This document shows, one piece after another, positions 9,697-63,609 of a DNA stretch of 64,000 bases. The stretch is from a virus. The notes under the pieces are model-generated. The model made no database searches and was not told where the DNA came from. It saw only the letters and a list, made by a program, of their open reading frames with translations. The number at the start of each line of letters is the position of its first letter. Within the stretch, counting starts at the first letter, position 1. The translations under genes were made by a program, and so were the position numbers. The stretch covers positions 64,001 through 128,000 of IMG/VR virus record IMGVR_UViG_3300042884_001120, one strand, 5' to 3'.

Positions 9697-12600
9697 TTAT
9701 AAATTTTTAATACCAAGTAATCTAAATGTAATACCAGTACCAGAAGGCCCAAAGTTCTTACCGCTAATAACGATATCCGCCACATCTATCTGCTCATTAT
9801 CTAAAGTATTTAAAATATTAGAGTAAAAAGATCTAAGCTGAATTACAGAAGAATTATTACCTATCGAGTTAGATTGTATAGAGTTATAGTAATTTAGCCC
9901 ACTTAAAAGATTATTATCCCTATATGAAATAATATTAAAGTTCATTCCAGTTTCTATATCCCAAACACCAGTAAAGGATCTTACTCCGGTAAATTTATTA
10001 ATATATCCTGTTATTGCACCAGAAGCGTATCCAGTATAATAACCTGTTGAAGCAAACGATACAGATGCCATTCCTGAAAAATTACTAGATGGAGACATTT
10101 GTAAATAAGAAGTTTTACCGCCAATTAATGTAGGATTTGGGATATTAATACCTGAGGTATTTGATGTTAAAGTAATAGAATTTCCAGAATCCCCAATAGC
10201 TATTGAAGTTAAAATTATTCCACTAGGCCCAAAAGCTGATCCAGTGCATAGAAAAACTCCCGAATTATTATTGATAATATCAACTAAGGCAGCTCTGGTA
10301 TTAAAAAAATCTGGTGCCAAATAATTTAAAGTATCATCATTATATGATATACTCTTATTATTAATAGATATAAAATCAAAATTATTTAATTTAGTATTAT
10401 CAATATAAACAACTCCAGTAGATTGCTGAAGCCCAGTTATTAATGGGTAATATGGATAATTATTATTATCAATATAATATCCACTTCCAGTAGCCATAAA
10501 TGATTGATTGTAATATCCATCATTGGAAAGGCCTCCTGTAATACCAGTTAGATAAAAATATCCAGTTACTCCAGTTTCACTATAACTCACTCCAGTTAAT
10601 AATCCAGTAAATTGTCCACTGGTTTTACCTGTTACATAAATATTATTATTTGAAAATAAACCACCAAGTGAGGTCGCCTTATCCACAATTGATTTTTTTA
10701 TAATAGTTTCCTCCGTAGAAAAAATACCACTTCCAGTAATATTTTTTGTATAAGTTTTGTCAAAAACCACTTCTTTAGTTCCAGTGTCGTAAAAATAATA
10801 ACCATCAAAAGTATGCGATAATAAGCCAGTTCCAGTAAAATTTCTAGTCAAAAATCCCGTAATATTACCAATATACTTACCGCTTCTATTTAGAAACTTT
10901 ACATTCCCTTCATTTACTGTTGGAATATATTGAATTTCTTCATTATAAGCTCTATAAACACCACTCATAGAGTCTCCACTAATAGTATAGTTATAATCTC
11001 CACTAAAAATAAGTGGTACAATATCACCTATATTAACAGTATAATCAGCACCTATTAAACATGATGACTGTCCAGAATGAGTGGTGATTCCAGTTTTTAA
11101 AGCGGAAAATAAATTTAAATTTTTGAAATAAACTTCATTTTTAGGTATTGAATAACTTTCCCTTCCTGCTGGTATTACGCCACTGAAATTTCTTGCAACT
11201 ATTCTATATCTATCAAAATTCAAATTAGTAATATCATATCCACTATTTGATAACCAGCAATTTAAATATTGTCCAGTTGGATCTAATACCCATCCAGTTC
11301 TAATATAAGATAAATATACATCTTCACTTTTTCCCTTATCTCCAATATTATCTGCCGTTACTCCCGAGCATAAATAACAATTGGTATCTGGAAAACTATA
11401 TTTAATAGCTATCGTAGGAACGTTTCCCTTGGAACACGCTTCCGAATCTTGTACTAAATTTAATTTTAATTTTTCAGACCATTTTGCGCAAGGGTCAACC
11501 AGATCGCTCCCACTGCACCCATTTACTCCAATTGGCCAACCAGTTGGGGTTTCAACTTTTATATCTCTAGATACTTGAATGGGCCCTCCACACTCTGGTT
11601 TAAGGTTTAGTGTTGATAATTGCGTTAAATCTAAAATAGTTTTAAAACCACCACTTATAGGATTTTCCACAAGAGTAATTTCTTCATTAGTAAAGTCTTG
11701 ATCTAATGACGCCATGCCTTGTCCAGAAGACAAGAAGTTATCATTTTGCATGTTTAATTTAATCGTGTCACCCTTTCCTGTAAGAAGTTTATACAATCCA
11801 CTTCTACGATCCAGTACTGCCCACCTACCATCAAGAGATCTCATAGCATTTGTTTGGCCCTGTATTTCTATAACATCTGGAATTAAGTAATCAAAACCAT
11901 TTTTTATGCTTTTTGTATAAGTTTCAGAATACTGTGGACTCCTATCCACTAAACTAAGACTGAAATTAAAACCTGATATATAATTTCTAAGAGATTTAAA
12001 TCTAATGATATTATTGTAATCTTCCTTGCCACTGTATTCTATACCAGTTAGTTTTTCGAATTGCATTAAACTTCCAGTTATATAAATCCCACTTGACTGC
12101 CCAGACAAACATTCATATGGATACCACACTGGGTAAGATCTTCCTAACCTATTATTAAGTGCGGAATTTAAACTGTCAATGCTATTAAAATCGTTTGGAT
12201 AAAATAATGAAAATCCAGTTGTTGGATAAATTGGATTATTATTTAAATGATAAGCTTTATACAAACCAGTATAGTCATAAGTATATAAAGAAAAAGACAA
12301 ACTGTCACCACTAATGAAATTGTTATATTTAATTTCACCAGTTCTAGTTGCAAAAAAATCAGTAATTGAAGAATTCTGTGTTACAGTATTTTGAGAAGCC
12401 GCACCATCGAAACCTTTAAAGAACGGATCACTTTTAAATCCAGATTTAAGTCCAGATATGTATTGATCATATGCAGTACCAGAAAGTGCTCCAGTATAAC
12501 ATATAACAATATCTTCAGGTGTCTCAATATCACCACACTCCGTAGGTTTAATACAGTAACCAGAATACGATGTAAAACTAATGCCAGTTGATTGCGAAAG

Positions 12601-14184
12601 AGATGGTATCTTTAAACTTTTTAAATAATTTAGTTTATTTTGTTCTTCATACCCACTATTAACTACTATATTATCAAAAGTAATTTTTTGAACAAGTTCT
12701 ACGGCATAAGAAAAAACATTCTTAGATAAACCTGACATATTAACACCCGTAGAAACATCATAAGCAGCCCAAATTTTATCATCCGCTGACAGTACTGAAT
12801 AAGTTGGCGGCTTAAAATTTAAATTTTTTACTTTAACACCTTGCCTAACTAGCTGTTGTGGAGAGAAAGTATCTTTAATTTTAAAATTTGTACTATAAAA
12901 ATCTTCATAAAAATAATCTGACACAATAACACCAGCATCTCCAGTAGCGATCCCAGTATAATTAAATTTTGCAAATTCTCCACTATTTTCTAACCAAGAA
13001 TCTCCACTTTTATATAGCCATAAATTTTTATATACCTCTATTGCCGTGTCAGTTGGATAGCTATACCTATCATCGTTTTGATATAATATATTACGACCAG
13101 ATCCATTATTATATATAGTAGATACTTGCAATGGTGAAATTGTTTTATTCCATATAGCAACTTCATCTACTAATCCACTAAATGGATTAAACATAATGTC
13201 TCCACTAACAAAACCGCCAAGACCGAATCCAGTAAATAGTCTATCAAATGTACTTGAATAAGAACCGGCCAAACTACCATTCCAGTACAATTTCATGCCA
13301 ACATTTTGCTGCGATGTTAACACAACATGATTCCATCTATTTGGTAGCCAAGGTTGATATTGTGCAATATTAGCACTCTCCACCCCATCATATACCCAAC
13401 CACCTAATCCAGTATTATCTTTATCAGCTAAAACTAGCGCCTGATTTCTTCCAGTTATTCCAGTTCCAGATATGGTACCAAGCGTCCAAATACAAGAAAG
13501 TTGATCAATGCCGCTCATGTTATAAGCATTAAACCAACAAGAAATAGAGTAATTATTTGGACCAACAACTATTCCAGTAGAGTTAAGGTAGTTAAGTCTG
13601 GAGTCTGAAACAAAAGCTGCGGCAGCGTTATTAATTCCACTTGCAGACCCGACAAAGCCTGATTGTAATAAAGTATTATTTTGCCCATTAATGCTATTGG
13701 GCCTATTTCCGGCAAATTGATTTAGTTTCCAATAAGCAATCAAATCATTAGTTAAAAATCCACTATATATCCCACTTCCACTTCCAATAGTTTGACCAAG
13801 AGAAACTATAGCTCGATTATATTCAGAACCTATAGACCCATTATTAGTAGCTATAATTAAGTTATTTCTTAAAAAATCTCCAGAACCAGAGGTGTAAGTA
13901 GAAATAAATTCAAATTCATCAATAAAATCTAAATTGGTAGTATTAAATACCTCGAAGGCATATTGCCATGTAGGAGTTGGCGTTGGGGTTGGGGTCGGCG
14001 TGGGGGTTGGGGTAGAAGTTGGGGTTGGTGTAGGCTCAGTAACATCCACTAAAATAGCTAAATTATAAGTGTTACCAGCCGAAATACCACTAGCCAATCT
14101 TCCAGTAACTAAATTCGGGACATAGTTCTCCAAAGAGTCGCCAGAACCCCAAGCATATAGATATCCAGTTTGATTAGTTGCCAT
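9697..14184 (-). CDS. Large tail fibre/spike protein: single RCC1 repeat, PT linker, LamG/concanavalin domain, S/T-G-rich body
   Basis: LIAYWKLN...YSISCWFN...WNHVVLT...KLYWNG...FSGLVDEVAIWNKTIS is a LamG_3 pattern; (PT)n linker. Confidence 0.75.
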   Translation of the reverse strand: MATNQTGYLYAWGSGDSLENYVPNLVTGRLASGISAGNTYNLAILVDVTEPTPTPTSTPTPTPTPTPTPTPTWQYAFEVFNTTNLDFIDEFEFISTYTSGSGDFLRNNLIIATNNGSIGSEYNRAIVSLGQTIGSGSGIYSGFLTNDLIAYWKLNQFAGNRPNSINGQNNTLLQSGFVGSASGINNAAAAFVSDSRLNYLNSTGIVVGPNNYSISCWFNAYNMSGIDQLSCIWTLGTISGTGITGRNQALVLADKDNTGLGGWVYDGVESANIAQYQPWLPNRWNHVVLTSQQNVGMKLYWNGSLAGSYSSTFDRLFTGFGLGGFVSGDIMFNPFSGLVDEVAIWNKTISPLQVSTIYNNGSGRNILYQNDDRYSYPTDTAIEVYKNLWLYKSGDSWLENSGEFAKFNYTGIATGDAGVIVSDYFYEDFYSTNFKIKDTFSPQQLVRQGVKVKNLNFKPPTYSVLSADDKIWAAYDVSTGVNMSGLSKNVFSYAVELVQKITFDNIVVNSGYEEQNKLNYLKSLKIPSLSQSTGISFTSYSGYCIKPTECGDIETPEDIVICYTGALSGTAYDQYISGLKSGFKSDPFFKGFDGAASQNTVTQNSSITDFFATRTGEIKYNNFISGDSLSFSLYTYDYTGLYKAYHLNNNPIYPTTGFSLFYPNDFNSIDSLNSALNNRLGRSYPVWYPYECLSGQSSGIYITGSLMQFEKLTGIEYSGKEDYNNIIRFKSLRNYISGFNFSLSLVDRSPQYSETYTKSIKNGFDYLIPDVIEIQGQTNAMRSLDGRWAVLDRRSGLYKLLTGKGDTIKLNMQNDNFLSSGQGMASLDQDFTNEEITLVENPISGGFKTILDLTQLSTLNLKPECGGPIQVSRDIKVETPTGWPIGVNGCSGSDLVDPCAKWSEKLKLNLVQDSEACSKGNVPTIAIKYSFPDTNCYLCSGVTADNIGDKGKSEDVYLSYIRTGWVLDPTGQYLNCWLSNSGYDITNLNFDRYRIVARNFSGVIPAGRESYSIPKNEVYFKNLNLFSALKTGITTHSGQSSCLIGADYTVNIGDIVPLIFSGDYNYTISGDSMSGVYRAYNEEIQYIPTVNEGNVKFLNRSGKYIGNITGFLTRNFTGTGLLSHTFDGYYFYDTGTKEVVFDKTYTKNITGSGIFSTEETIIKKSIVDKATSLGGLFSNNNIYVTGKTSGQFTGLLTGVSYSETGVTGYFYLTGITGGLSNDGYYNQSFMATGSGYYIDNNNYPYYPLITGLQQSTGVVYIDNTKLNNFDFISINNKSISYNDDTLNYLAPDFFNTRAALVDIINNNSGVFLCTGSAFGPSGIILTSIAIGDSGNSITLTSNTSGINIPNPTLIGGKTSYLQMSPSSNFSGMASVSFASTGYYTGYASGAITGYINKFTGVRSFTGVWDIETGMNFNIISYRDNNLLSGLNYYNSIQSNSIGNNSSVIQLRSFYSNILNTLDNEQIDVADIVISGKNFGPSGTGITFRLLGIKNL
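13970..14040 (-). repeat. Pro-Thr tandem repeat (linker)
   Basis: TEPTPTPTSTPTPTPTPTPTPTPT, 6-bp periodicity. Confidence 0.9.
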
Positions 14185-15074: not shown

Positions 15075-18000
15075 TTATGGACATGGGCACCAATCGCCAC
15101 CACAGTCTAATGGTGCGTTTCGAGTTAAAACTGAGCTACCGATTACTAGCGAGGCGCCAGCTGCGGCCTCTTCGCCTTGTAGTTTTTTATTGCTAGCATA
15201 AACTCTAGTATTAGATGCATCAAAAGCCTGCGCTTCGACACTAGCATAAGTCGGTGTCCATAGCGGCATTGGACTAGGCCAAGATACGGTAATGGTATCT
15301 TCCGGCCCATTTAAGGTGCCGACTAATACTGGAGCACATCCAGCAGCTGCCGAATTTCCCGGTGCGGAGGCATACCCACCAGTTCTATAAACTCTTACAG
15401 GATAAGCAATCTCGTCACAACCTGCCGGTGATGATGGGTATGGAACCAATTCGACATCAACCACGCGCTCATGTGGTCTCCAATAACCGCCATCTCTATC
15501 AAATACACCGTCGGGACAGTTCGAGTCTAATGGTATGTCAAATTTACTAAAAGCAAAATTTCCTCGATGTACTATTAACTGTAAAGTTCCTCTTGAAGAT
15601 GGTTTTATAAAAGACACTGGATATCTATATATAAAACTAAAATTATTATTAGTTCTTGTTATAAGTGACTGCATCCCGCCATTTCTTCTATCATAAACAA
15701 TTCTTCCGCCATTAACTAGGTAAACTCTATAATCCACACTAGGATCACCCCCCATAATCTCTCCATCAATAACCCATGTACTACCACAAACATTAGAGTT
15801 CTCACAACAATATGCTTGAGATAGATTTACTCCATATTCAAACGGTGTACCTCGACCATTTATGGTGGGAAATTCTGGACACTCTCTAGGTGGTGGTGTG
15901 GGTCGTGGCGGATATACGGTTGGTGGAGGATTAAATACGTTGTCACAATCCGGACATTGTGGCGGTTCTGGCGGTTCTGGCGGTTCTGGTGGTTCTGGAG
16001 GCTGTGGCGGCTCTGGAGGCTCTGGAGGCTGTGGTGGTTCTGGGGGTTCTGGCGGTTCTGGTGGCTGAGGCGGAGGGGGCAATATATTTGGATCTATAAG
16101 CTTAAAATCTATAAAAGAACTATTATTGTAAGGATACACCACCTCGTTAACTGGTGTTACAGTTTTTGAGCAATTGCCGGACTCATCATCATATAGTGAA
16201 AAGGTAGCTGTTGTTCTTGCATAATTAACCGAAGGATGTTCAAATATATTACCAAGTTTATAATTTGTATTAACTTGAAGGGATAAGGTTCCATTGCTAG
16301 TTTTTTCGTATTTACTGTTTGGGTAAACTGGTATAGCAAAATACTTAACGCTTTCATTAGGTTTTAGTATATAATCAAATATAAAACCACTAATTCTATT
16401 TTCATCTGAAAGATAGGGCAAATTATTATTTGTATTTTGAAATTGGGCAACCAATGTTCCACTTTGCGTATAATTTGTATATCCAGTTCTATTAACTTGA
16501 AAAGCAATATATTGATCTTTCTCGCATCCAGTATAGTCGCTATGACTCAAATAAATATTAGAAGACATTTGGCTTGGCACTATATTTTTAGATCTTAATT
16601 CTAAAGTATGATAACCAGTAGAAAAATTTTGAGTAACATTTAATCCACCAGTTTGTCCTAATAAATTGTTATTATAATTTATGTAATACCCACCACTCCA
16701 CTGCGTACCAGTTCTCGTTTTTTCATAAAAAACATTTCCAAAACCTGTTTTAACAACTATTTCAGATGGTGCCACTTTATACAATATATTTTTATTATAA
16801 AATACACCCGTAGTACCAGTAAAAAACCCCAAAACCCCACTAACGTTCATACCAGAATAAACGCCGGAAGATATAAAATAACCTGTTTCAAAATTTAAAT
16901 AATTCAATTTATAGAAATTAGCATATAGCATTTCTCCAGTTGTTACTGATTTGAAATTAAATGACAATGGATATTGTATATAACTTTTACCTGTAATTTT
17001 AAAATTAACACTAGTATAATCTTCATCATCAAATAAATTATACTTACCAGATACGTATGTTATGTTTTGATATTGGGAAACTTTCTTATAGCCAGTTTCT
17101 TCCGTTGTTAATAATGGCTGTTTCCAACCTAGAAAATCTATTCCATAGCCTGAAATTTTGCTATTATCTTTTGATATATAACCACCGGTAAAATATGGTT
17201 TTTGATATATATTATCATATACACCACTAGTCCCGCCTATGGTTGTTCTTTTATATTGATAACCACCAATTCCAGTATTTTTTTCATAAACAAATTCACC
17301 GCTATCAACAGGTAAATTATATAATTTAACTATAGGTGTAAAAACTCCAGTTTCATCTTCCAAAGAAATGGAGTTAGGTATTCCAGTTACAGGAATTTCA
17401 AAATCTAAATCTATTTCGTCACATCCAGCAAAACTTTTTCCAGTGGATATTATTTGTGAAATTATACCTGTTGTGAACTTAGTTTCATCAAACTTATCTT
17501 TAATTGGATTAAAATTTTCTATTAAATTAGTATTCCCACTAACCATTCCACTAAATGGCCTTGAAAATACATAATAACCGGGTTCATATATTGAACCGAA
17601 GTCGCCCATAAACTTGCCAGAAAGCCTTTCTCCAGTTGCAAAACCATATCCAATTAGGCGAATTTTATCTGTAAAATTTCCAGTAACAAATATTGTTGGA
17701 CTGGTTAAATTAATAATTTCCAAATCCTTGGAAGCAAAATCACCAGTAATTTTTCCAGTATATGGCACGAATCCATTGAAATTACCACCACTAGATATAA
17801 TTCCATATACAAACTGATTAAATATAACTCCAGAAGCGTTACCAGTAATATTGCCACCAGTAACATTGCCACCTAAATAAGAAATGTATCCACTATAATT
17901 TATATTATTTGAATAGCCAGTTGCTAATAGGTCAGTAGTTCCTTGTATATCACCAATACCAGTAGCCAATGTACTATAAAAACCACTTACAATCTTATCA

Positions 18001-21603: not shown

Positions 21604-23748
21604 TTAAAAAAGGTCGTTATTATTATATAATATATCAGAATTTATATCAAAAATACCGCTTCCAGCATTACTGTCAAAATTCGGCAATTCTAAATAATCT
21701 ACCCCAACATTTAAACGTTTTCCAGACAAATATACTTCCGAATAGTTAGTATAATATCTATTTTCAGCTTTAATTAAATTACTATTTCCAGTGATATTAT
21801 AATCAAATATGGCTGGCAGTAATAACAAATCTCCAGATCCGTAAGAAAAAATCCCATTATATTCATCAAAATATAAACCCGATGGGGTTACAGCGTAATC
21901 ACAATTAATTCCAATATTTTCAATTTTTCCAGAAATCATTTTCCTGCCAGAAAAGAATAGCCTACTATTGGTTGGCCAATCAAGAATAAATCCAACTCCA
22001 GATGGATAATAACCAGAAGCCATACAGCCCGAAGAATTAATTAATCTATATGTAACCCAAGACCATATGTTTAGCGAAGAACCATTACCAATTGCTCTTA
22101 TTTTACTAAAATTATTATTCAATCTAGGTATAATACTTGAATATCCACCAGATATATTATTAATTAATGCTATATTAATCCCACTTTCAAGTCCACTTAT
22201 CTCACTTAAAATTTGTAAAGATACTGACCCAACCCCAGCGCCACTAGCATATATAAATATTAAGGAACTTTCCCCTGAAGATACGTCAACCCAATCACCA
22301 GTAAAATCTACTGACTGTCCAGTTGCTAAAAATCCAGTTTTTATTTCTGCAGATTCAGAATAACAGCCGCCCAAACTAAAATCTTTTATATATAAATTAG
22401 TATTATAAGCGTTTTCAACGCTATCAATTATAACCATGTCATTATCACTAGAATTACTACTAAAAAATACTTCATTTCTAGAATTAACCAAATAATCATT
22501 TGATATATTATTTTTTATGTCATATACAGAACCACTTGTAATATTTATTCCAGAAATTTTTGCCAATCCATTTTTTGAAATATAGTAAAAATAATTAGCA
22601 TCATAATTATTAAAAAAAGAGTTTTTGACATAGTCATATTGGCCCTTTAAATTTGTTCTATATGTATAATCATAATTGCCGGTTGGAACGCTTATATCAA
22701 CAACCGCATTATCTTGCATATTGTTTAATATATTTATTTTTGATCTACCAAAAGAATTGACAAAATTACTGTTAAAAACAACATATCCACCACTATATCC
22801 AGTTGACTCAATCACCCTTTGTCCAGAAAGAGGAATTATTCCAGTACCATATTCTGTACCAGTAAGTGCTATTTGGGAATAGCCAGTATACTCAATACCA
22901 AAATCATCAATAAGAACACCAGTAGCAATAATTGAATAACCAGTTATATTAGAATAATACTCAGTTATGCCAGTAGAATATCCAGTTATTTCATTAATAG
23001 TGACCTGTTCGACATAGGGAGTATCTGGTATAAAACTATGTGCAAAACCAGTATTTAAGTATACAATATCATTTAGATATACATAAGGACTAAACAGCAT
23101 AAACTGCTGCATATAGCCAGTGAATCTTTTATTATAGTTATAACTATTTACTACATTGGTATTATAACCTAAGTATATATTTTTAGGATCAAAAATATAA
23201 TTACCATCAATTAAAAAATTATTCGAATTTAGTTTGTTATAAAAATAATTATAATCACCAAATGAAATTTTATTATTGGTTACCGTTAAATATACAGAAC
23301 CCTTATCCGATAGCGTGGAACTAGAAGTGAAAACCTGAGGGCCATTATTTGTATAATATTCGAAATATAAAGCGTTATTAGCAGTGAAACCAAATTCAAA
23401 GCCCTTGTAATAGAATCCCGAGCCGTTATTTCCGGTATCTACTGTTGATATTAAAGTGCCTCCTCCACTAGCCAAATTTTCATAAACTACTACATAAGTA
23501 CTATCTGATAAATTAATATCATTTCCAGTATTTGTTATCTTAACAGAATTACCAGAAAAAAATCCATTTCCAGAATTATTCCAGAAACCATTTAATGTGG
23601 GAACTATCTGTCCGCTAACTTCCGCACCAATTCCACTAATATTAGTAATAGAATTTCCAGTTAAATTAAAATCAAAAAACACCCTGCAATTATCATTTGC
23701 AACGCTATTATATAAGTTTAAAAAATATGGAACTGAGTGATTTGACAT
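21604..23748 (-). CDS. Tail protein with N-terminal LamG-like domain
   Basis: VFFDFN...YLGY...FTGYMQQFMLFS pattern; S/T-G rich. Confidence 0.6.
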   Translation of the reverse strand: MSNHSVPYFLNLYNSVANDNCRVFFDFNLTGNSITNISGIGAEVSGQIVPTLNGFWNNSGNGFFSGNSVKITNTGNDINLSDSTYVVVYENLASGGGTLISTVDTGNNGSGFYYKGFEFGFTANNALYFEYYTNNGPQVFTSSSTLSDKGSVYLTVTNNKISFGDYNYFYNKLNSNNFLIDGNYIFDPKNIYLGYNTNVVNSYNYNKRFTGYMQQFMLFSPYVYLNDIVYLNTGFAHSFIPDTPYVEQVTINEITGYSTGITEYYSNITGYSIIATGVLIDDFGIEYTGYSQIALTGTEYGTGIIPLSGQRVIESTGYSGGYVVFNSNFVNSFGRSKINILNNMQDNAVVDISVPTGNYDYTYRTNLKGQYDYVKNSFFNNYDANYFYYISKNGLAKISGINITSGSVYDIKNNISNDYLVNSRNEVFFSSNSSDNDMVIIDSVENAYNTNLYIKDFSLGGCYSESAEIKTGFLATGQSVDFTGDWVDVSSGESSLIFIYASGAGVGSVSLQILSEISGLESGINIALINNISGGYSSIIPRLNNNFSKIRAIGNGSSLNIWSWVTYRLINSSGCMASGYYPSGVGFILDWPTNSRLFFSGRKMISGKIENIGINCDYAVTPSGLYFDEYNGIFSYGSGDLLLLPAIFDYNITGNSNLIKAENRYYTNYSEVYLSGKRLNVGVDYLELPNFDSNAGSGIFDINSDILYNNNDLF

Positions 23749-58585: not shown

Positions 58586-59030
58586 TATTATTATATATTA
58601 TAATATAAATTTACACTAATACAGTGGACACCTCCTCATTCATCCTTGTTTTTTGTTTTTTTACCATTGAGTTAGGGTTAATATAATATTTTTATTCATA
58701 TTTGGCACACGAGCGCGTAGCATTCGCGCGCGCATTTATTCGTAGCGGCGGATACTTTAGTATTTAGCCACTGAACTATTAGTTTAAACTGGTTTAAACT
58801 TTTAAACCGGTAGAAGTGGCGGTGATTTCTGAATAATGTATGTATTTTGTTGATGGAGATTGAAATTTGACCCTACCGGCATCTTACCCGGTCTTACAAG
58901 GTCAATTTTTCGGAAAAAGGGGGGGTATGCCTATGTGTGCGTGTTGTCATACATACTCACACTCAAAATAAAAATGAATTAAAATAAAAAAGTTCTTGTG
59001 TTTCTACATGAATGATCCTAGTATAGACAC

Positions 59031-59138
59031 ATGAACAATAAGAACACGCAGACGCTCGACGAGAGGATTGCTGAAGCTAATCGCAAGGCCGCACAGATCG
59101 CCCTTGCCAACCTCAAGGCTGATCCCTTGAATCAGTAA
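59031..59138 (+). CDS. Early microprotein, 35 aa
   Basis: MNNKNTQTLDERIAEANRKAAQIALANLKADPLNQ; own promoter. Confidence 0.7.
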   Translation: MNNKNTQTLDERIAEANRKAAQIALANLKADPLNQ

Positions 59139-59849: not shown

Positions 59850-59995
59850 GCATTGTCACACAACTGCAATGCAAGAAGGCGTTTGCCGAATGGTGCGCCC
59901 TGCATCGCATACCCATTAAGAAGTATCCTGCTTACGGCTTGCGCCTGTATGGTATATGGGAACGCAAATGGAATAGAAGGTATGACACTGTATAA
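59846..59995 (+). CDS. Early microprotein, 49 aa
   Basis: MSIVTQLQCKKAFAEW...; ATGA overlap. Confidence 0.6.
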   Translation: MSIVTQLQCKKAFAEWCALHRIPIKKYPAYGLRLYGIWERKWNRRYDTV

Positions 59996-59996
59996 C

Positions 59997-60167
59997 ATGA
60001 AGAAGATCATAGTAGAATCAAGATGGAAGGGTGACACCAAGTGGAGCTATCGTGCCGAGCTAGTAGGTAGCACAGAGACCAAGGCCCTGCTACAATACTA
60101 TAAGCTTGTCGCACAAGATGAGCGGCTCAAGTGCAAGAATGAATATAGGGTAAGGCTAGTGGAATAG
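59997..60167 (+). CDS. Early microprotein, 56 aa
   Basis: MKKIIVESRWKG...; likely real start within track ORF 59853..60167. Confidence 0.65.
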   Translation: MKKIIVESRWKGDTKWSYRAELVGSTETKALLQYYKLVAQDERLKCKNEYRVRLVE

Positions 60168-60169
60168 CT

Positions 60170-60214
60170 AAAGCCCTGAAGATCAACGACTTACGACGCC
60201 GGGCCCCGCCGGGC
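60170..60214 (+). repeat. Composite repeat copy 1 (imperfect palindrome + GC-rich element)
   Basis: AAAGCCCTGAAGATCAACGACTTACG-ACGCCGGGCCCCGCCGGGC. Confidence 0.9.
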
Positions 60215-60341
60215 ATACGATGCAAGACAACTGTAAGACAGTGCATATGTCAAGAGAAAAGATATTGTCATACACAAATAAAAATGTAAAAAAATAAAAG
60301 TTTTTGTTGCGTTCTGATCCGTTCTGCCCTATCTTAAAACC

Positions 60342-60551
60342 ATGAAGAACAAGACCGCCCCTCTAAACTTTGACAACGTGTGCAACATCCGCACTTACCT
60401 CGCCCTTTCGATCAAGGGGGAAATCAAGTTACGACGCGAAACTGTGACTTACTGGGGCGCATCTAGCGCAATGGCTAAACTGCACAATCAGCGAGTGCGT
60501 GACATGGTCAGGGCATACAGGGCCGCGAAAGGAATCGAAATAAAGTTTTGA
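60342..60551 (+). CDS. Early hypothetical protein
   Basis: Own promoter TTGCGT-17-TATCTT. Confidence 0.75.
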   Translation: MKNKTAPLNFDNVCNIRTYLALSIKGEIKLRRETVTYWGASSAMAKLHNQRVRDMVRAYRAAKGIEIKF

Positions 60552-60582
60552 CACGGCAATACCAAAAGACGATACTATGAAT

Positions 60583-60813
60583 ATGAAAACCGACATCACA
60601 CACAACACCACCTCCGAACTCATGCTCCGCGCCGTTAACGACCGCGAGCTTTCCACCCTCGTTGAGAGGAGCTTTGAGGAGTGCGACTTGGGGATCATCA
60701 AGCGTCAACTGATGAGGGCCTTTGTTTACACAGGGGCGCAGATGACGGCCTTTGAGCAGGAATGGGCGTTGTCATACAATGACTGGTATTCGGAACATTG
60801 CCCGAACGAATAA
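60583..60813 (+). CDS. Early hypothetical protein
   Basis: Promoter TTGACA-17-GATACT places the likely start at ATG 60583. Confidence 0.75.
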   Translation: MKTDITHNTTSELMLRAVNDRELSTLVERSFEECDLGIIKRQLMRAFVYTGAQMTAFEQEWALSYNDWYSEHCPNE

Positions 60814-60817
60814 TCAC

Positions 60818-60949
60818 ATGAACACCGAACGCTTTGTCATACAAGTGAAAGACATCCGCAAGCGCCAACGCTTTGCGCCCTTGCAGAAGTTAATTGCTTC
60901 AAAAAAGCTCTATAAAAGGAGAGCTAAACATCGGGCCGAACGGGATTAA
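60818..60949 (+). CDS. Basic microprotein, 43 aa
   Basis: MNTERFVIQVKDIRKRQRFAPLQKLIASKKLYKRRAKHRAERD. Confidence 0.7.
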   Translation: MNTERFVIQVKDIRKRQRFAPLQKLIASKKLYKRRAKHRAERD

Positions 60950-60952
60950 CAC

Positions 60953-61002
60953 AAAGCCCTGATAATCAACGACTTACGAAGCCGGGCCCCGCCGGGCGCG
61001 CG
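60953..61002 (+). repeat. Composite repeat copy 2
   Basis: AAAGCCCTGATAATCAACGACTTACG-AAGCCGGGCCCCGCCGGGCGCGCG. Confidence 0.9.
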
Positions 61003-61131
61003 TTGTCTTACAATCTCTCACTTGTTATATCATAGTTGCTCAGCCAGTGTCAAGCATTTTCTGCAAAAAAAATTTAAAAAAACAAAAAAATACCTATTGC
61101 TTTTCTCATGGGCGCATGATACATTTTAATC

Positions 61132-61350
61132 ATGAAAACGAAACTAGCACTAAACGGAAGGGAAGTTGATTCCCAGTCAATCAACATTGAAGGCGTGAAT
61201 CGCGCTGACTATCCAGACTTTGCAGATGCCTTCATCGGTGAAGCGGTTTGGATGAACGATGGAACAGCCTTGAATGACGAGGAGTTAGAGCAACTCACCG
61301 AGGAAAATGGCGAACTGGTAAACCAGTTGGCGCATGAAAACTTTTTTTAA
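61132..61350 (+). CDS. Acidic early protein
   Basis: DYPDFADAFI...LNDEELEQL; promoter TTGCTT-17-TACATT. Confidence 0.8.
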   Translation: MKTKLALNGREVDSQSINIEGVNRADYPDFADAFIGEAVWMNDGTALNDEELEQLTEENGELVNQLAHENFF

Positions 61351-61391
61351 TCTCCTGTTGACAAAATCGCAAAAACTGAAATAATCAAATC

Positions 61392-61703
61392 ATGAACAAC
61401 ACGAACACCAAGGAAGCAATCAGGGAACAGGCAAAGCAGAAACTCGCCGCGCTTGTGATTGGCAAGGTCTACTCTCACGAAAACGAAACTTTCGTTTACG
61501 AGGGTGACGACCGCGCAACTCTTCGCAACATGTCGGTTTCTAGCGGTGATGTTCCGTTGCTTCGGCATGACGGAAATCTGGTGAACATGTCTGTCCTCCT
61601 TGGTCTCAAGGAGTCTTACATGAGCAGGGAGGAGTTTGATGCGTCTTACAACAACACCTCTAACGCCATGACTGAATGGTGCCACAAAAACAATCAATAC
61701 TAA
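61392..61703 (+). CDS. Early hypothetical protein
   Basis: Promoter TTGACA-16-AATAAT. Confidence 0.75.
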   Translation: MNNTNTKEAIREQAKQKLAALVIGKVYSHENETFVYEGDDRATLRNMSVSSGDVPLLRHDGNLVNMSVLLGLKESYMSREEFDASYNNTSNAMTEWCHKNNQY

Positions 61704-61814
61704 TATAATATAACATGAGCCTACATAGAATCTCACTACATATAAATTGCTTGATTAATAGGCCAAAAAATTGGCGTTTCTACATGTTAGGTATTCTCAG
61801 AGAGCTGTCTCTAT

Positions 61815-61864
61815 AAAGTGTTGAGGATCAGGGACTTACAGTGCCCGGCCCCGCCCGGCCCGCG
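61815..61864 (+). repeat. Composite repeat copy 3 (arms swapped)
   Basis: AAAGTGTTGAGGATCAGGGACTTACA-GTGCCCGGCCCCGCCCGGCCCGCG. Confidence 0.85.
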
Positions 61865-61972
61865 TTGTCATACATTCTCGCACCACGTGTTGTCAAGCGT
61901 TTTCTCCCATCCGGTCGAAATTTTTTTATAAATAATTATTGCACACAGATCCCTTTGTGGTATTCTCTAATC

Positions 61973-62110
61973 ATGGAAAACGAAATGAACCCGAAGGAAC
62001 TAGCAACGGATGATCTCGCCGCCTATGCCGCCGAATATGAGGCATGGATTGACGAGATGGAAAAACTCGTCGCAGAGCATGGCAACCCTAACGCTTGGAG
62101 CTGGAAATAA
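61973..62110 (+). CDS. Acidic early microprotein, 45 aa
   Basis: MENEMNPKELATDDLAAY...; promoter TTGCAC-16-TATTCT. Confidence 0.75.
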   Translation: MENEMNPKELATDDLAAYAAEYEAWIDEMEKLVAEHGNPNAWSWK

Positions 62111-62146
62111 GTTGACACGATAATAAAAATCCTTTTTAATTACTTT

Positions 62147-62512
62147 ATGAACCCAGACACCAACAACGAGGTCGCCGCGACCCCTGCAACTATGACACCG
62201 CAAGAAATCAACCGACGAATCGCCATCGCCTGCGGGTGGAAGTTGCTTCCTAATAGCTTTCCCCCGAATAGCCGTTTATGGGAGCATCCTAGCGGGAAGA
62301 GAGCCTATGAGCCTGATGATCTCCCCAACTACCACGGCGACCTAAACGCGATGCATGAGGCGGAAAAGGTACTGTCACGCCAACAGACTGAGTGGTATGT
62401 CACAACACTATGCCTTGAGGTACAGCCAGAGCCATCGTTACACAACGCAACAGCCAGCCAACGAGCCGAGGCTTTCCTCCGCACAATCGGACAATGGGAG
62501 GAGGTAAAATGA
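62147..62512 (+). CDS. Phage ABA-sandwich-like domain protein
   Basis: INRRIAIACGW...PNYHGDLNAMHEAE...ATASQRAEAFL. Confidence 0.65.
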   Translation: MNPDTNNEVAATPATMTPQEINRRIAIACGWKLLPNSFPPNSRLWEHPSGKRAYEPDDLPNYHGDLNAMHEAEKVLSRQQTEWYVTTLCLEVQPEPSLHNATASQRAEAFLRTIGQWEEVK

Positions 62513-63083: not shown

Positions 63084-63311
63084 ATGATTAAAAACAATTT
63101 TAATAAAATGGATTTTGATCTTATGCTTGATGCCTTTGAAGAGGCAACGGCAAATGTTCCTCGCCGTGAGATGGTAAAGAAACTTCTGCAAATACAGGTT
63201 GAGCGTGATGCGGCAATTACCTTTGGCCTTGCGTTCTGTGAGACTACAGGCAATGTCTCTGGACTGATTAACGACTTCCGCGCATTCACAAGGGCAATCG
63301 GAGAGGCTTGA
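63084..63311 (+). CDS. Hypothetical protein
   Basis: Tiles the operon. Confidence 0.65.
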   Translation: MIKNNFNKMDFDLMLDAFEEATANVPRREMVKKLLQIQVERDAAITFGLAFCETTGNVSGLINDFRAFTRAIGEA

Positions 63312-63342
63312 CACTATAACCAAAAAATATTTTAATAACTAT

Positions 63343-63609
63343 ATGGAAAAAATTACCTACCGCATTGAAATGAAAATCTCTGCTCCTCATAAGGGATGGG
63401 GGAAATGGAATCTGCTTCATGTGTCCAGAACTGAACGTGCGGCATATAATTGGTTACGCAAAAATTCAACCAATGAAGATATATGGAAGCATAATAAAGT
63501 TTTTCGTATTGAAAAGATTGAGCCTCCATTCTCTATAACCATGCACACACTTTCCAAGAAAGCGTTGCACGATGCGGTTAACAAGATTGCGCCAATATTG
63601 ACCACCTAA
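63343..63609 (+). CDS. Early hypothetical protein
   Basis: Promoter TTGACA-17-TTTAAT. Confidence 0.75.
   Translation: MEKITYRIEMKISAPHKGWGKWNLLHVSRTERAAYNWLRKNSTNEDIWKHNKVFRIEKIEPPFSITMHTLSKKALHDAVNKIAPILTT

Follow-up and report, generated by a model that had tools for sequence, protein, structure and literature searches.

What is the repeated palindromic element that separates small early genes towards the end of a 64,000-nucleotide stretch of viral DNA, and what does it do for the phage that carries it? The stretch, here called the window, covers bases 64,001-128,000 of the 154,360-bp IMG/VR record IMGVR_UViG_3300042884_001120, so that the genome position is the window position plus 64,000; positions below are those of the window unless marked as genome positions. 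The record has a 127-bp terminal overlap, indicating a circular assembly and a complete genome. A sequence-only reading of positions 60,170-61,972 had described the repeats as the boundaries of an integron-like, promoter-carrying cassette system that shuffles early modules of 2-3 genes. We compared the window's phage (G000) with five related IMG/VR contigs, including G001, G002, G003 and G005. The results bear out only part of this reading, and we regard it as an even bet that the 46-bp core of the element marks the boundaries of early transcription units as a docking site for a protein, and doubles as a seam for homologous recombination.

A search pattern consisting of the palindrome and the GC-rich box behind it (the GC box), with at most three mismatches, matched exactly three sites in the window, at 60169-60214, 60952-60997 and 61814-61859, all on the plus strand, and none in 100 shuffles. 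The measured spacings of 783 and 862 bp agree with the distances of about 780 and 860 bp noticed earlier, and the TGTCAAG boxes are located at 60248, 61048 and 61891, as had been read. The palindrome of copy 1, which is 26-27 bp long and AT-rich (TAAAG..CTTAC, 60169-60194), starts 2 nt after the TAG stop codon of the open reading frame (ORF) at 59949-60167 and is followed by a GC box of the G/G form, GCCGGGC-CCC-GCCGGGC (60198-60214). The start-of-unit module of this copy (60215-60341) contains TGTAAGACA at 60232-60240, TGTCAAG at 60248-60254, TGTCATACA at 60266-60274, an A/T tract near 60277-60305, and the hexamers TTGCGT (60307-60312) and TATCTT (60330-60335) with a 17-nt spacer, followed after 6 nt by the ATG at 60342. 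In copy 2, the palindrome (CAAAG..CTTAC, 60952-60977) lies 2 nt after the TAA stop codon of the ORF at 60779-60949, the GC box (60981-60997) is again of the G/G form, and the module (60998-61131) consists of TGTCTTACA at 61004-61012, TGTCAAG at 61048-61054, an A/T tract at 61065-61090, and TTGCTT (61097-61102) and TACATT (61120-61125), also 17 nt apart, before the ATG at 61132. The palindrome of copy 3 (TAAAG..CTTAC, 61814-61839) provides with its own TAA the stop codon of a 33-amino-acid ORF (61715-61816). Its GC box has the C/C form, GCCCGGC-CCC-GCCCGGC (61843-61859), and is the seam where G005 has an extra cassette of 425 bp; the module (61860-61972) contains TGTCATACA at 61866-61874, TGTCAAG at 61891-61897, an A/T tract, and TTGCAC (61939-61944) and TATTCT (61961-61966) with a 16-nt spacer, and the ATG is at 61973. 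All features of the three copies are on the plus strand.

Two details of the sequence-only reading stood in part. The fixed order of palindrome, GC element, TGTCWTACA, TGTCAAG, A/T tract, promoter-like hexamers and ATG is found in copies 2 and 3 but not in copy 1, where the forward box TGTCATACA (60266) is placed 3' of TGTCAAG and an inverted box, TGTAAGACA (60232), 5' of it. The exchanged inner arms that had been described for copy 3 are present as letters, but there is no systematic flip, and these positions simply vary over the 71 copies that were collected from the six genomes. A coupled flip of the arms with the letters of the GC box was also considered and rejected, as the states at positions -22 and -12 are not associated with the G or C state of the box over these 71 copies.

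The search for further copies that had been suggested earlier was productive. The complete genome contains 12 clear copies at genome positions 124,169-143,268, eleven of them on the plus strand, and a degenerate thirteenth copy at genome 134,877-134,953 (L004:16877-16953), in which two good palindromes surround a half-decayed GC box (GACCAAGGGGGCCCGGC). Similar two-armed, tail-to-tail copies are located at genome 139,598-139,674 and 143,224-143,299. The five related contigs contain 4-15 copies each, which together with those of the window's phage gives the total of 71.

With the first G of the GC box numbered as position 0, the consensus of these 71 copies is (G)TAAGT-nG-CTGA-twA-TCAA-cg-ACTTAC-rGC-GCCSGGC-CCC-GCCSGGY. 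The core thus consists of a 27-bp AT-rich palindrome centred on position -17, 3 bp, and two GC heptamers 10 bp apart. A-28, A-13, T-7 and T-6 are invariant, A-27 and T-21 are present in 70 of the 71 copies, and 15 of the 17 positions in the GC box are invariant or nearly so. The box can be read in two ways, either as a 7-bp stem with a CCC loop or as two odd palindromic heptamers. The centre letters of the heptamers are G/G in 25 boxes, C/C in 22, G/C in 23 and C/G in one (23, 22, 22 and 1 if only the 68 distinct copies are counted). Orthologous boundaries differ in both centre letters together, and the G/C form is accompanied by a T at position 16. The right half of the palindrome corresponds to the IHF consensus WATCAANNNNTTR, with no mismatch in 32 of the 71 copies and no more than one in 50, while the left half is a weaker mirror image of it (at most one mismatch in 28 copies); IHF itself is not universal.

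The placement of the element relative to the genes is regular in the left block of the array. The last ORF of a unit stops at positions -36 to -16, sometimes with the TAA or TGA of the element itself, and the next ATG follows 113-210 nt after the GC box. The units between the elements hold 1-9 genes. The box TGTCWTACA is located at +21 to +34 from the GC box, and the right flank beyond it comes in two forms. In the short form, TGTCAAS at +40 to +68 is followed by an A/T tract and a promoter, while the long form has GCATAAACAC at +41 and +100 and TGTCAAS at +121, all with fixed spacing. The long form is found at genome 129,833-129,960 and 131,436-131,560 (L004:11833-11960 and 13436-13560) and in 19 copies in the relatives; it has a conserved CTGyrGATGAAT between the GCATAAACAC boxes and no Rfam match, and may represent an RNA or a set of DNA sites. 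The promoter-like hexamers of the start module have 8 of 12 matches and are accompanied by an A/T tract. The first promoter module of the plus-strand array (58941-59033) contains a TGTCATACA box, an A/T tract, promoter-like hexamers and an ATG, without a palindrome or a GC box, which shows that a start-of-unit module can occur apart from the end-of-unit core. In the right block, which contains tRNA genes, rIIB (genome 139,814-140,722, minus strand) and rIIA (genome 140,899-143,187, minus strand), the copy between rIIA and rIIB follows a canonical terminator and lies just upstream of rIIB, and several copies at tail-to-tail junctions have palindromes on both sides of a single GC box.

Some copies are associated with a strong leftward promoter of the sigma-70 type (TTGACA-N17-TAGAAT or TATACT), with the -10 box abutting the GC box, as at genome 132,523-132,551 (L004:14523-14551, minus strand). 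Similar leftward promoters are located at 10879 in G001, 17824 and 25738 in G002, 16099 and 16787 in G003, and 21782 in G005. Transcription from such a promoter would cross the element and run antisense to the gene before it, and TGTCAAG is the -35 box of the promoter read backwards.

IMG/VR was also scanned for the palindrome with only GCC required after it, and then with a weight matrix. The same 27-bp palindrome was found in 27 further contigs of uncultured phages, where nearly all copies form twins that flank a GC-rich core (loci L147-L188; for example L159:846-12100, L155:7883-13160 and L166:523-4982). The offset between the starts of the twins is fixed in each lineage; it is 50 nt for 78 of the pairs and 41 or 42 nt for another 37, and values of 39, 47, 48 or 58 nt also occur. 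The arrays contain up to 14 pairs in 12 kb, between small genes. The first palindrome is most commonly separated from the upstream ORF by a gap of -3, which means that the TAA in GTAAGT, inside that palindrome, serves as the upstream stop codon. A distance of 50-130 nt separates the second palindrome from the start of the next gene, and the arrangement is mirrored for genes on the minus strand. No covariation was found within the palindromes or between the twins, where the variable positions are paired in 41-54%. The family and the window's lineage thus have the palindrome consensus, the GC-rich core, the arrays between early cassettes and the stop codon in the first palindrome in common, but the window's lineage mostly lacks the second palindrome, and its core is a fixed double heptamer, GCCSGGC-CCC-GCCSGGY. 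As the same palindrome occurs as twins in 27 contigs, the window's lineage is a one-armed variant of the twin family, in which an operator and promoter module has mostly taken over the place of the second palindrome.

The core could act either as DNA or as RNA. We suggest that it is a sequence-specific docking site for a protein on DNA and not a plain terminator hairpin, since the conserved letters are combined with free spacer positions that do not covary, the folds do not exceed those of shuffled sequences, and there is no T-run. Specifically, the pairs of the inner palindrome are complementary in only 43-62% of the copies, pairing at the centre of the GC box is rarer than independence predicts, and a G-G or C-C mismatch interrupts the stem at its centre in about two-thirds of the copies. 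No compensatory double changes were found in the palindrome or the GC box over the 71 copies, and the RNA folds, computed for either strand, do not exceed those of dinucleotide shuffles in stability (z +1.2 to -0.6). There is no T-run 3' of the GC box, and terminator-like sites are no more frequent on the plus strand of the array than expected by chance, although the phage places a canonical hairpin with a T-run after rIIA. The definition of an intrinsic terminator, a GC hairpin followed directly by a U-tract, therefore does not describe the element, and Rfam, at the gathering and E-value thresholds, returned only tRNAs and a weak twister match elsewhere. Copies in the right block are moreover antisense to the adjoining genes.

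An RNA-level signal is nevertheless a possible, if rather unlikely, explanation. According to this alternative, the GC box would be a terminator or a hairpin that protects 3' ends, the palindrome a second hairpin or an RNase III-type processing site, and the conservation a product of concerted evolution. This would fit with the location of the core directly after stop codons and before the next promoter, with the perfect 6-7-bp GC stem and CCC loop in about one-third of the copies, and with the departures at the closing pair, most of which are G-T and correspond to G-U wobble on the plus strand. The stem-loops of T4-type phages that are compared below also serve as terminators. In sister lineages with short cores, the cores are significant hairpins of differing sequence, some with UACG or UUCG loops (z -2.5 to -3.9), whereas the cores of the lineages with a 50-nt offset are not genuine hairpins, and one sister lineage has a direct heptamer repeat, GCCGCGC-CCC-GCCGCGC, that is unable to pair. 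An N4-type hairpin promoter was rejected, as there is no candidate for a virion RNA polymerase and the giant ORFs encode the tape measure and tail proteins.

The view that the element bounds gene cassettes was supported. Among the relatives, the cassettes vary in content, order and orientation, and the seams of these changes are at the element. A synteny table of clustered ORFs from the six genomes shows that the core run is kept in order (genes 10-15, followed by 16-18, 20-21, 22 and 23), while the units to the left of it (genes 7, 8, 9 and 56-61) occur in varied orders and combinations. The right-hand units are found in three arrangements, S-R-Q-P, P-Q-S-R, or P-Q'-R'-S' with an inversion. 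In distantly related pairs, the adjacency of conserved genes is kept across an element in 34 of 119 cases (29%), compared to 148 of 202 (73%) without an element (odds ratio 0.15); the Fisher p-value of about 5e-15 is only indicative since the counts share ancestry. Gene order is thus not conserved across the element, and breakpoints do occur there. For example, cassette X, which consists of G005 21782-22207 and matches G003 16787-17155, contains one ORF of 72-91 amino acids that is intact in both carrier genomes, although with different neighbours. It is absent from the window's phage, where a single hybrid element is left, with the left flank of the element at G005 21782 and the right flank of that at G005 22207.

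The seams also fall inside the element. Position 3 of the GC box follows the cassette to the left (identity 0.75 versus 0.47 for the cassette to the right), and position 13 the cassette to the right (0.70 versus 0.49), which means that crossovers often occur inside the GC box. In pairwise maps, the point where two relatives cease to be similar varies, being -38, a site inside the GC box, +17 or about +30, and there is no single crossover point. Because the crossovers scatter from -38 to +30 and no recombinase was found, homology-driven exchange fits better than an integron. Short contigs from four lake-metagenome runs gave weak joints with sides of at most 35 nt, and were not used as evidence.

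The element recurs at every unit boundary in the phage and its relatives, and the rearrangement seams concentrate there. We propose that a dimeric sequence-specific protein may bind the palindrome, the halves of which resemble mirrored IHF consensus sites, while the GC box could serve as a second site or a stiff clamp. The putative complex would insulate neighbouring early transcription units, either by blocking read-through or by organising the next promoter. As the same 46 bp or more are present at every boundary, ordinary homology-driven recombination can act between copies, within one genome or between co-infecting relatives, and could delete, insert, permute and invert whole self-expressing units, as for the stem-loops of T4-type phages.

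Several observations weigh against this proposal. There is no gene in the phage for a protein of the HU/IHF family (Bac_DNA_binding, PF00216), and neither RecA, RecT nor ERF was found in it. The GC cores of some sister lineages, which are true hairpins with lineage-specific sequences and UNCG-type loops, hint at a role in single-stranded DNA or RNA. The copies upstream of genes in the right block and the separate terminator of rIIA make a uniform end-of-unit role too simple, and the near absence of the C/G centre form in the GC boxes is not accounted for. The closest pair, the window's phage and G005, differ by about ten indels, of which only one or two are located at the element; most are at other repeats, some of them at repeated promoters. 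The seams could cluster at unit boundaries only because selection tolerates breaks there.

A stronger version of the docking hypothesis, which we consider unlikely, is that the palindrome and the GC core form the recognition site of a widely shared phage protein that both insulates the units and actively promotes their exchange between co-infecting phages. Candidates for such a protein are the products of conserved early genes found together with the arrays, namely a 168-amino-acid ORFan (genome 130,023-130,529), a GP88-family protein (genome 130,522-131,262) and a DUF932 protein (genome 131,629-132,435). The predicted structure of the DUF932 protein (pLDDT 74) has no fold match, and profile searches of the PDB with this protein and with the 168-amino-acid ORFan returned nothing. 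If a protein with this dual role exists, large uncultured phages would have a dedicated system for both regulation and the shuffling of cassettes, for which no counterpart has been described.

The integron-like, recombinase-driven system that was first proposed was not supported. Profiles for tyrosine recombinases (Phage_integrase, PF00589), serine recombinases (Resolvase) and Y1 transposases (Y1_Tnp; HUH, IS200/RAYT-type) have no match in the complete genome, while their controls were detected (those for PF00589 in 14 of 14 genomes); the recombinase gene that had been envisaged outside the window is thus not detected by these profiles there either. Further arguments are the scattered crossovers, the indels of the closest pair, most of which are at other repeats and many at promoter repeats, and the cassettes' own promoters. 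The earlier reading had alternatively invoked a host Xer-type enzyme and a comparison with the host dif site; dif-type sites have 11 + 6 + 11 bp. Among 185,579 bacterial and archaeal genomes, the element has only 13 single chance hits, in high-GC genomes, and is therefore probably not a copy of a dif-type or REP-type repeat of the host; the spacer between the GC heptamers is 3 bp, which is too short for the overlap region of a tyrosine recombinase. We thus find it distinctly improbable that the GC box is the crossover core of a dedicated site-specific system, with the palindrome as an accessory or bending arm and an unrecognised phage protein or a host enzyme excising and integrating the promoter-carrying cassettes. 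Such a system would account for cassette X moving as a unit between two elements, for the linkage of positions 3 and 13 to the left and right cassettes, and for the only C/G box, at G005 21782, in which the left half is of the C type and the right half of the G type. The sharing of one GC box by two palindromes at tail-to-tail junctions, the layout of a core and a bend-site arm, which recalls att sites, and the 10 + 7 + 10 division of the 27-bp palindrome, which has the dimensions of a tyrosine-recombinase core site, are also in its favour.

It is very improbable that the copies are polar sites for replication or other DNA transactions, such as Ter-like fork barriers, priming or R-loop sites, or targets of a cruciform resolvase, with recombination as a by-product of stalled forks or breaks. 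The copies of G001, G002 and G003 are arranged in two groups of opposite orientation, both pointing towards one cassette, although the genes are co-directional, and the leftward promoters that abut the GC box in some copies would also agree with such a function. An AT-rich palindrome next to a GC palindrome favours cruciform extrusion. However, the orientation assigned from the CCC loop is shaky, as several copies in the right block have palindromes on both sides, and the tie of the copies to stop codons and promoters points to gene expression. A Ter-like reading based on GC skew was discarded, since the skew merely follows gene direction. Finally, a selfish miniature mobile element (MITE- or REP-like) spreading in intergenic DNA without a function for the phage is the least credible explanation, since the many near-identical copies, the resemblance to BIME-1/RIP (a GC-rich imperfect palindrome and an IHF site) and the stop codons in two reading frames per strand of the palindrome are countered by the lack of terminal inverted repeats enclosing a unit, of a target-site duplication and of a detectable transposase or RAYT, by boundary positions that are conserved across genomes with 72-82% DNA identity between genes, and by the fixed register with stop codons and promoter modules.

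The three copies in the window are located at the start of the early arm of the genome (about 120-148 kb in genome positions), which has a G+C content of 42-49% compared to 31-37% for most of the genome. The small ORFs in this arm are ORFans without a match in Pfam, and together with rIIA, rIIB and the sigma-70-type promoters close to the ATGs they mark the region as early. Besides rIIA and rIIB, the arm contains the genes for the GP88-family and DUF932 proteins, about 20 tRNA genes and two Ogg-like glycosylase paralogues. The latter (Ogg-HhH, 8-oxoguanine glycosylase-like) adjoin each other at genome 135,007-136,390 (L004:17007-18390), and the first one is missing from the closest relative, G005. 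Genes for an ECF-like sigma factor and PhoH are located beside the arrays in related contigs.

Many genes in the arm are preceded by promoter-like TTGACA-N17-TAnnnT sites, with the -10 box 4-7 nt 5' of the ATG. Sites of the form TTGACA-N16/17-TAnnnT are found before nearly every small early gene, for example at 60548-60579, 61358-61394, 62112-62149 and 63308-63345. Shine-Dalgarno-like motifs are rare in the genome (11 of 104 long ORFs). The position of the -10 boxes and the rarity of Shine-Dalgarno motifs suggest that the early genes are transcribed by the host polymerase into mRNAs with little or no leader. Another motif, GTGTAAtAT, recurs 10-30 nt before the start codons of structural genes (many long late genes on the minus strand, throughout the genome) and is likely a late-promoter motif. 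The profile for T7-type RNA polymerases had no match in the phage, but this is uninformative, as the control also matched nowhere; the WhiB family profile had no match in the phage.

The phage is an uncultured lake phage, and near-identical DNA is present in lake-water metagenomes. It encodes a 1929-amino-acid tape measure protein and a large terminase. No DNA match to the phage was found among 50,697 deposited phage records, and searches of deposited phages with a 7.5-kb region and with the element gave no match.

The early regions of large phages hold most of the unknown genes for host takeover and counter-defence, and except for the T4-type phages, little is understood about the way in which such genes are exchanged. 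The element offers a computational handle for finding early-gene cassettes, with the twin form in dozens of uncultured phage lineages, and a concrete DNA site with which a binding protein can be fished out. With seams about 7-fold enriched at the element by odds, the arrays also lend themselves to measurements of modular exchange in nature. Should a dedicated protein take part, it would be a new regulatory or recombination module.

Several known systems resemble the element in part. BIME-1/RIP elements of enterobacteria are chromosomal host elements in which REP palindromes are combined with an IHF site. They are similar in that a GC-rich imperfect palindrome is placed beside an IHF-consensus site after genes, but the element described here is restricted to phages, has the IHF-like motif twice in mirror image inside the palindrome and, unlike REP/BIME systems, is not accompanied by a RAYT. 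The attC sites of integrons are also recombination-prone imperfect palindromes after the stop codon of a cassette, and cassette content and order vary in both systems. However, there is no IntI (PF00589) in the complete genome, the crossover points are scattered, and the units contain 1-9 genes with promoter-like sites before nearly every gene, whereas integron cassettes are promoterless single genes expressed from one Pc promoter. Furthermore, the structure of attC is conserved while its sequence is free and contains extrahelical bases, whereas here the sequence is conserved without compensatory changes.

The stoperators of Cluster A mycobacteriophages are 13-bp asymmetric sites for the monomeric immunity repressor of temperate phages, with an orientation that follows transcription (PMC9283540). 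As in our phage, many copies of one site are located in short intergenic spaces at the ends of genes, and stoperators have been proposed to stop elongating RNA polymerase (PMC9283540). The sites described here differ in being palindromic, 46 bp long and of mixed orientation, and no repressor or integrase is known.

The closest counterparts are the promoter/early stem-loops (PeSLs) of T4-type phages (Arbiol et al. 2010, PMC2839356; Comeau et al. 2014, PMC4122927), and the comparison with PeSLs that accompanied the sequence-only reading was apt. PeSLs combine a strong sigma-70-like early promoter with a stable stem-loop that acts as a terminator, mini-circles form, and recombination between the repeats shuffles early units in T4-type phages (PMC2839356, PMC4122927). 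Both systems have a repeated composite motif between small ORFan early genes of a plastic region, here with 13 copies and with rIIA and rIIB present; in both, the palindromic part is GC-rich and precedes an AT-rich tract and a promoter of the sigma-70 type (here promoter-like hexamers), the units carry their own expression signals, and indels and replacements between relatives end in the motif. However, the phage is not of the T4 type, as indicated by the 1929-amino-acid tape measure protein and the lack of DNA matches to deposited phages. The conserved part is a 27-bp AT-rich palindrome with two GC heptamers, the sequence of which is fixed and does not covary, two-thirds of the copies have a mismatch in the "stem", and the promoter module is separable and variable. 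The element is thus closest in kind to the PeSLs, but has a different and sharply conserved architecture.

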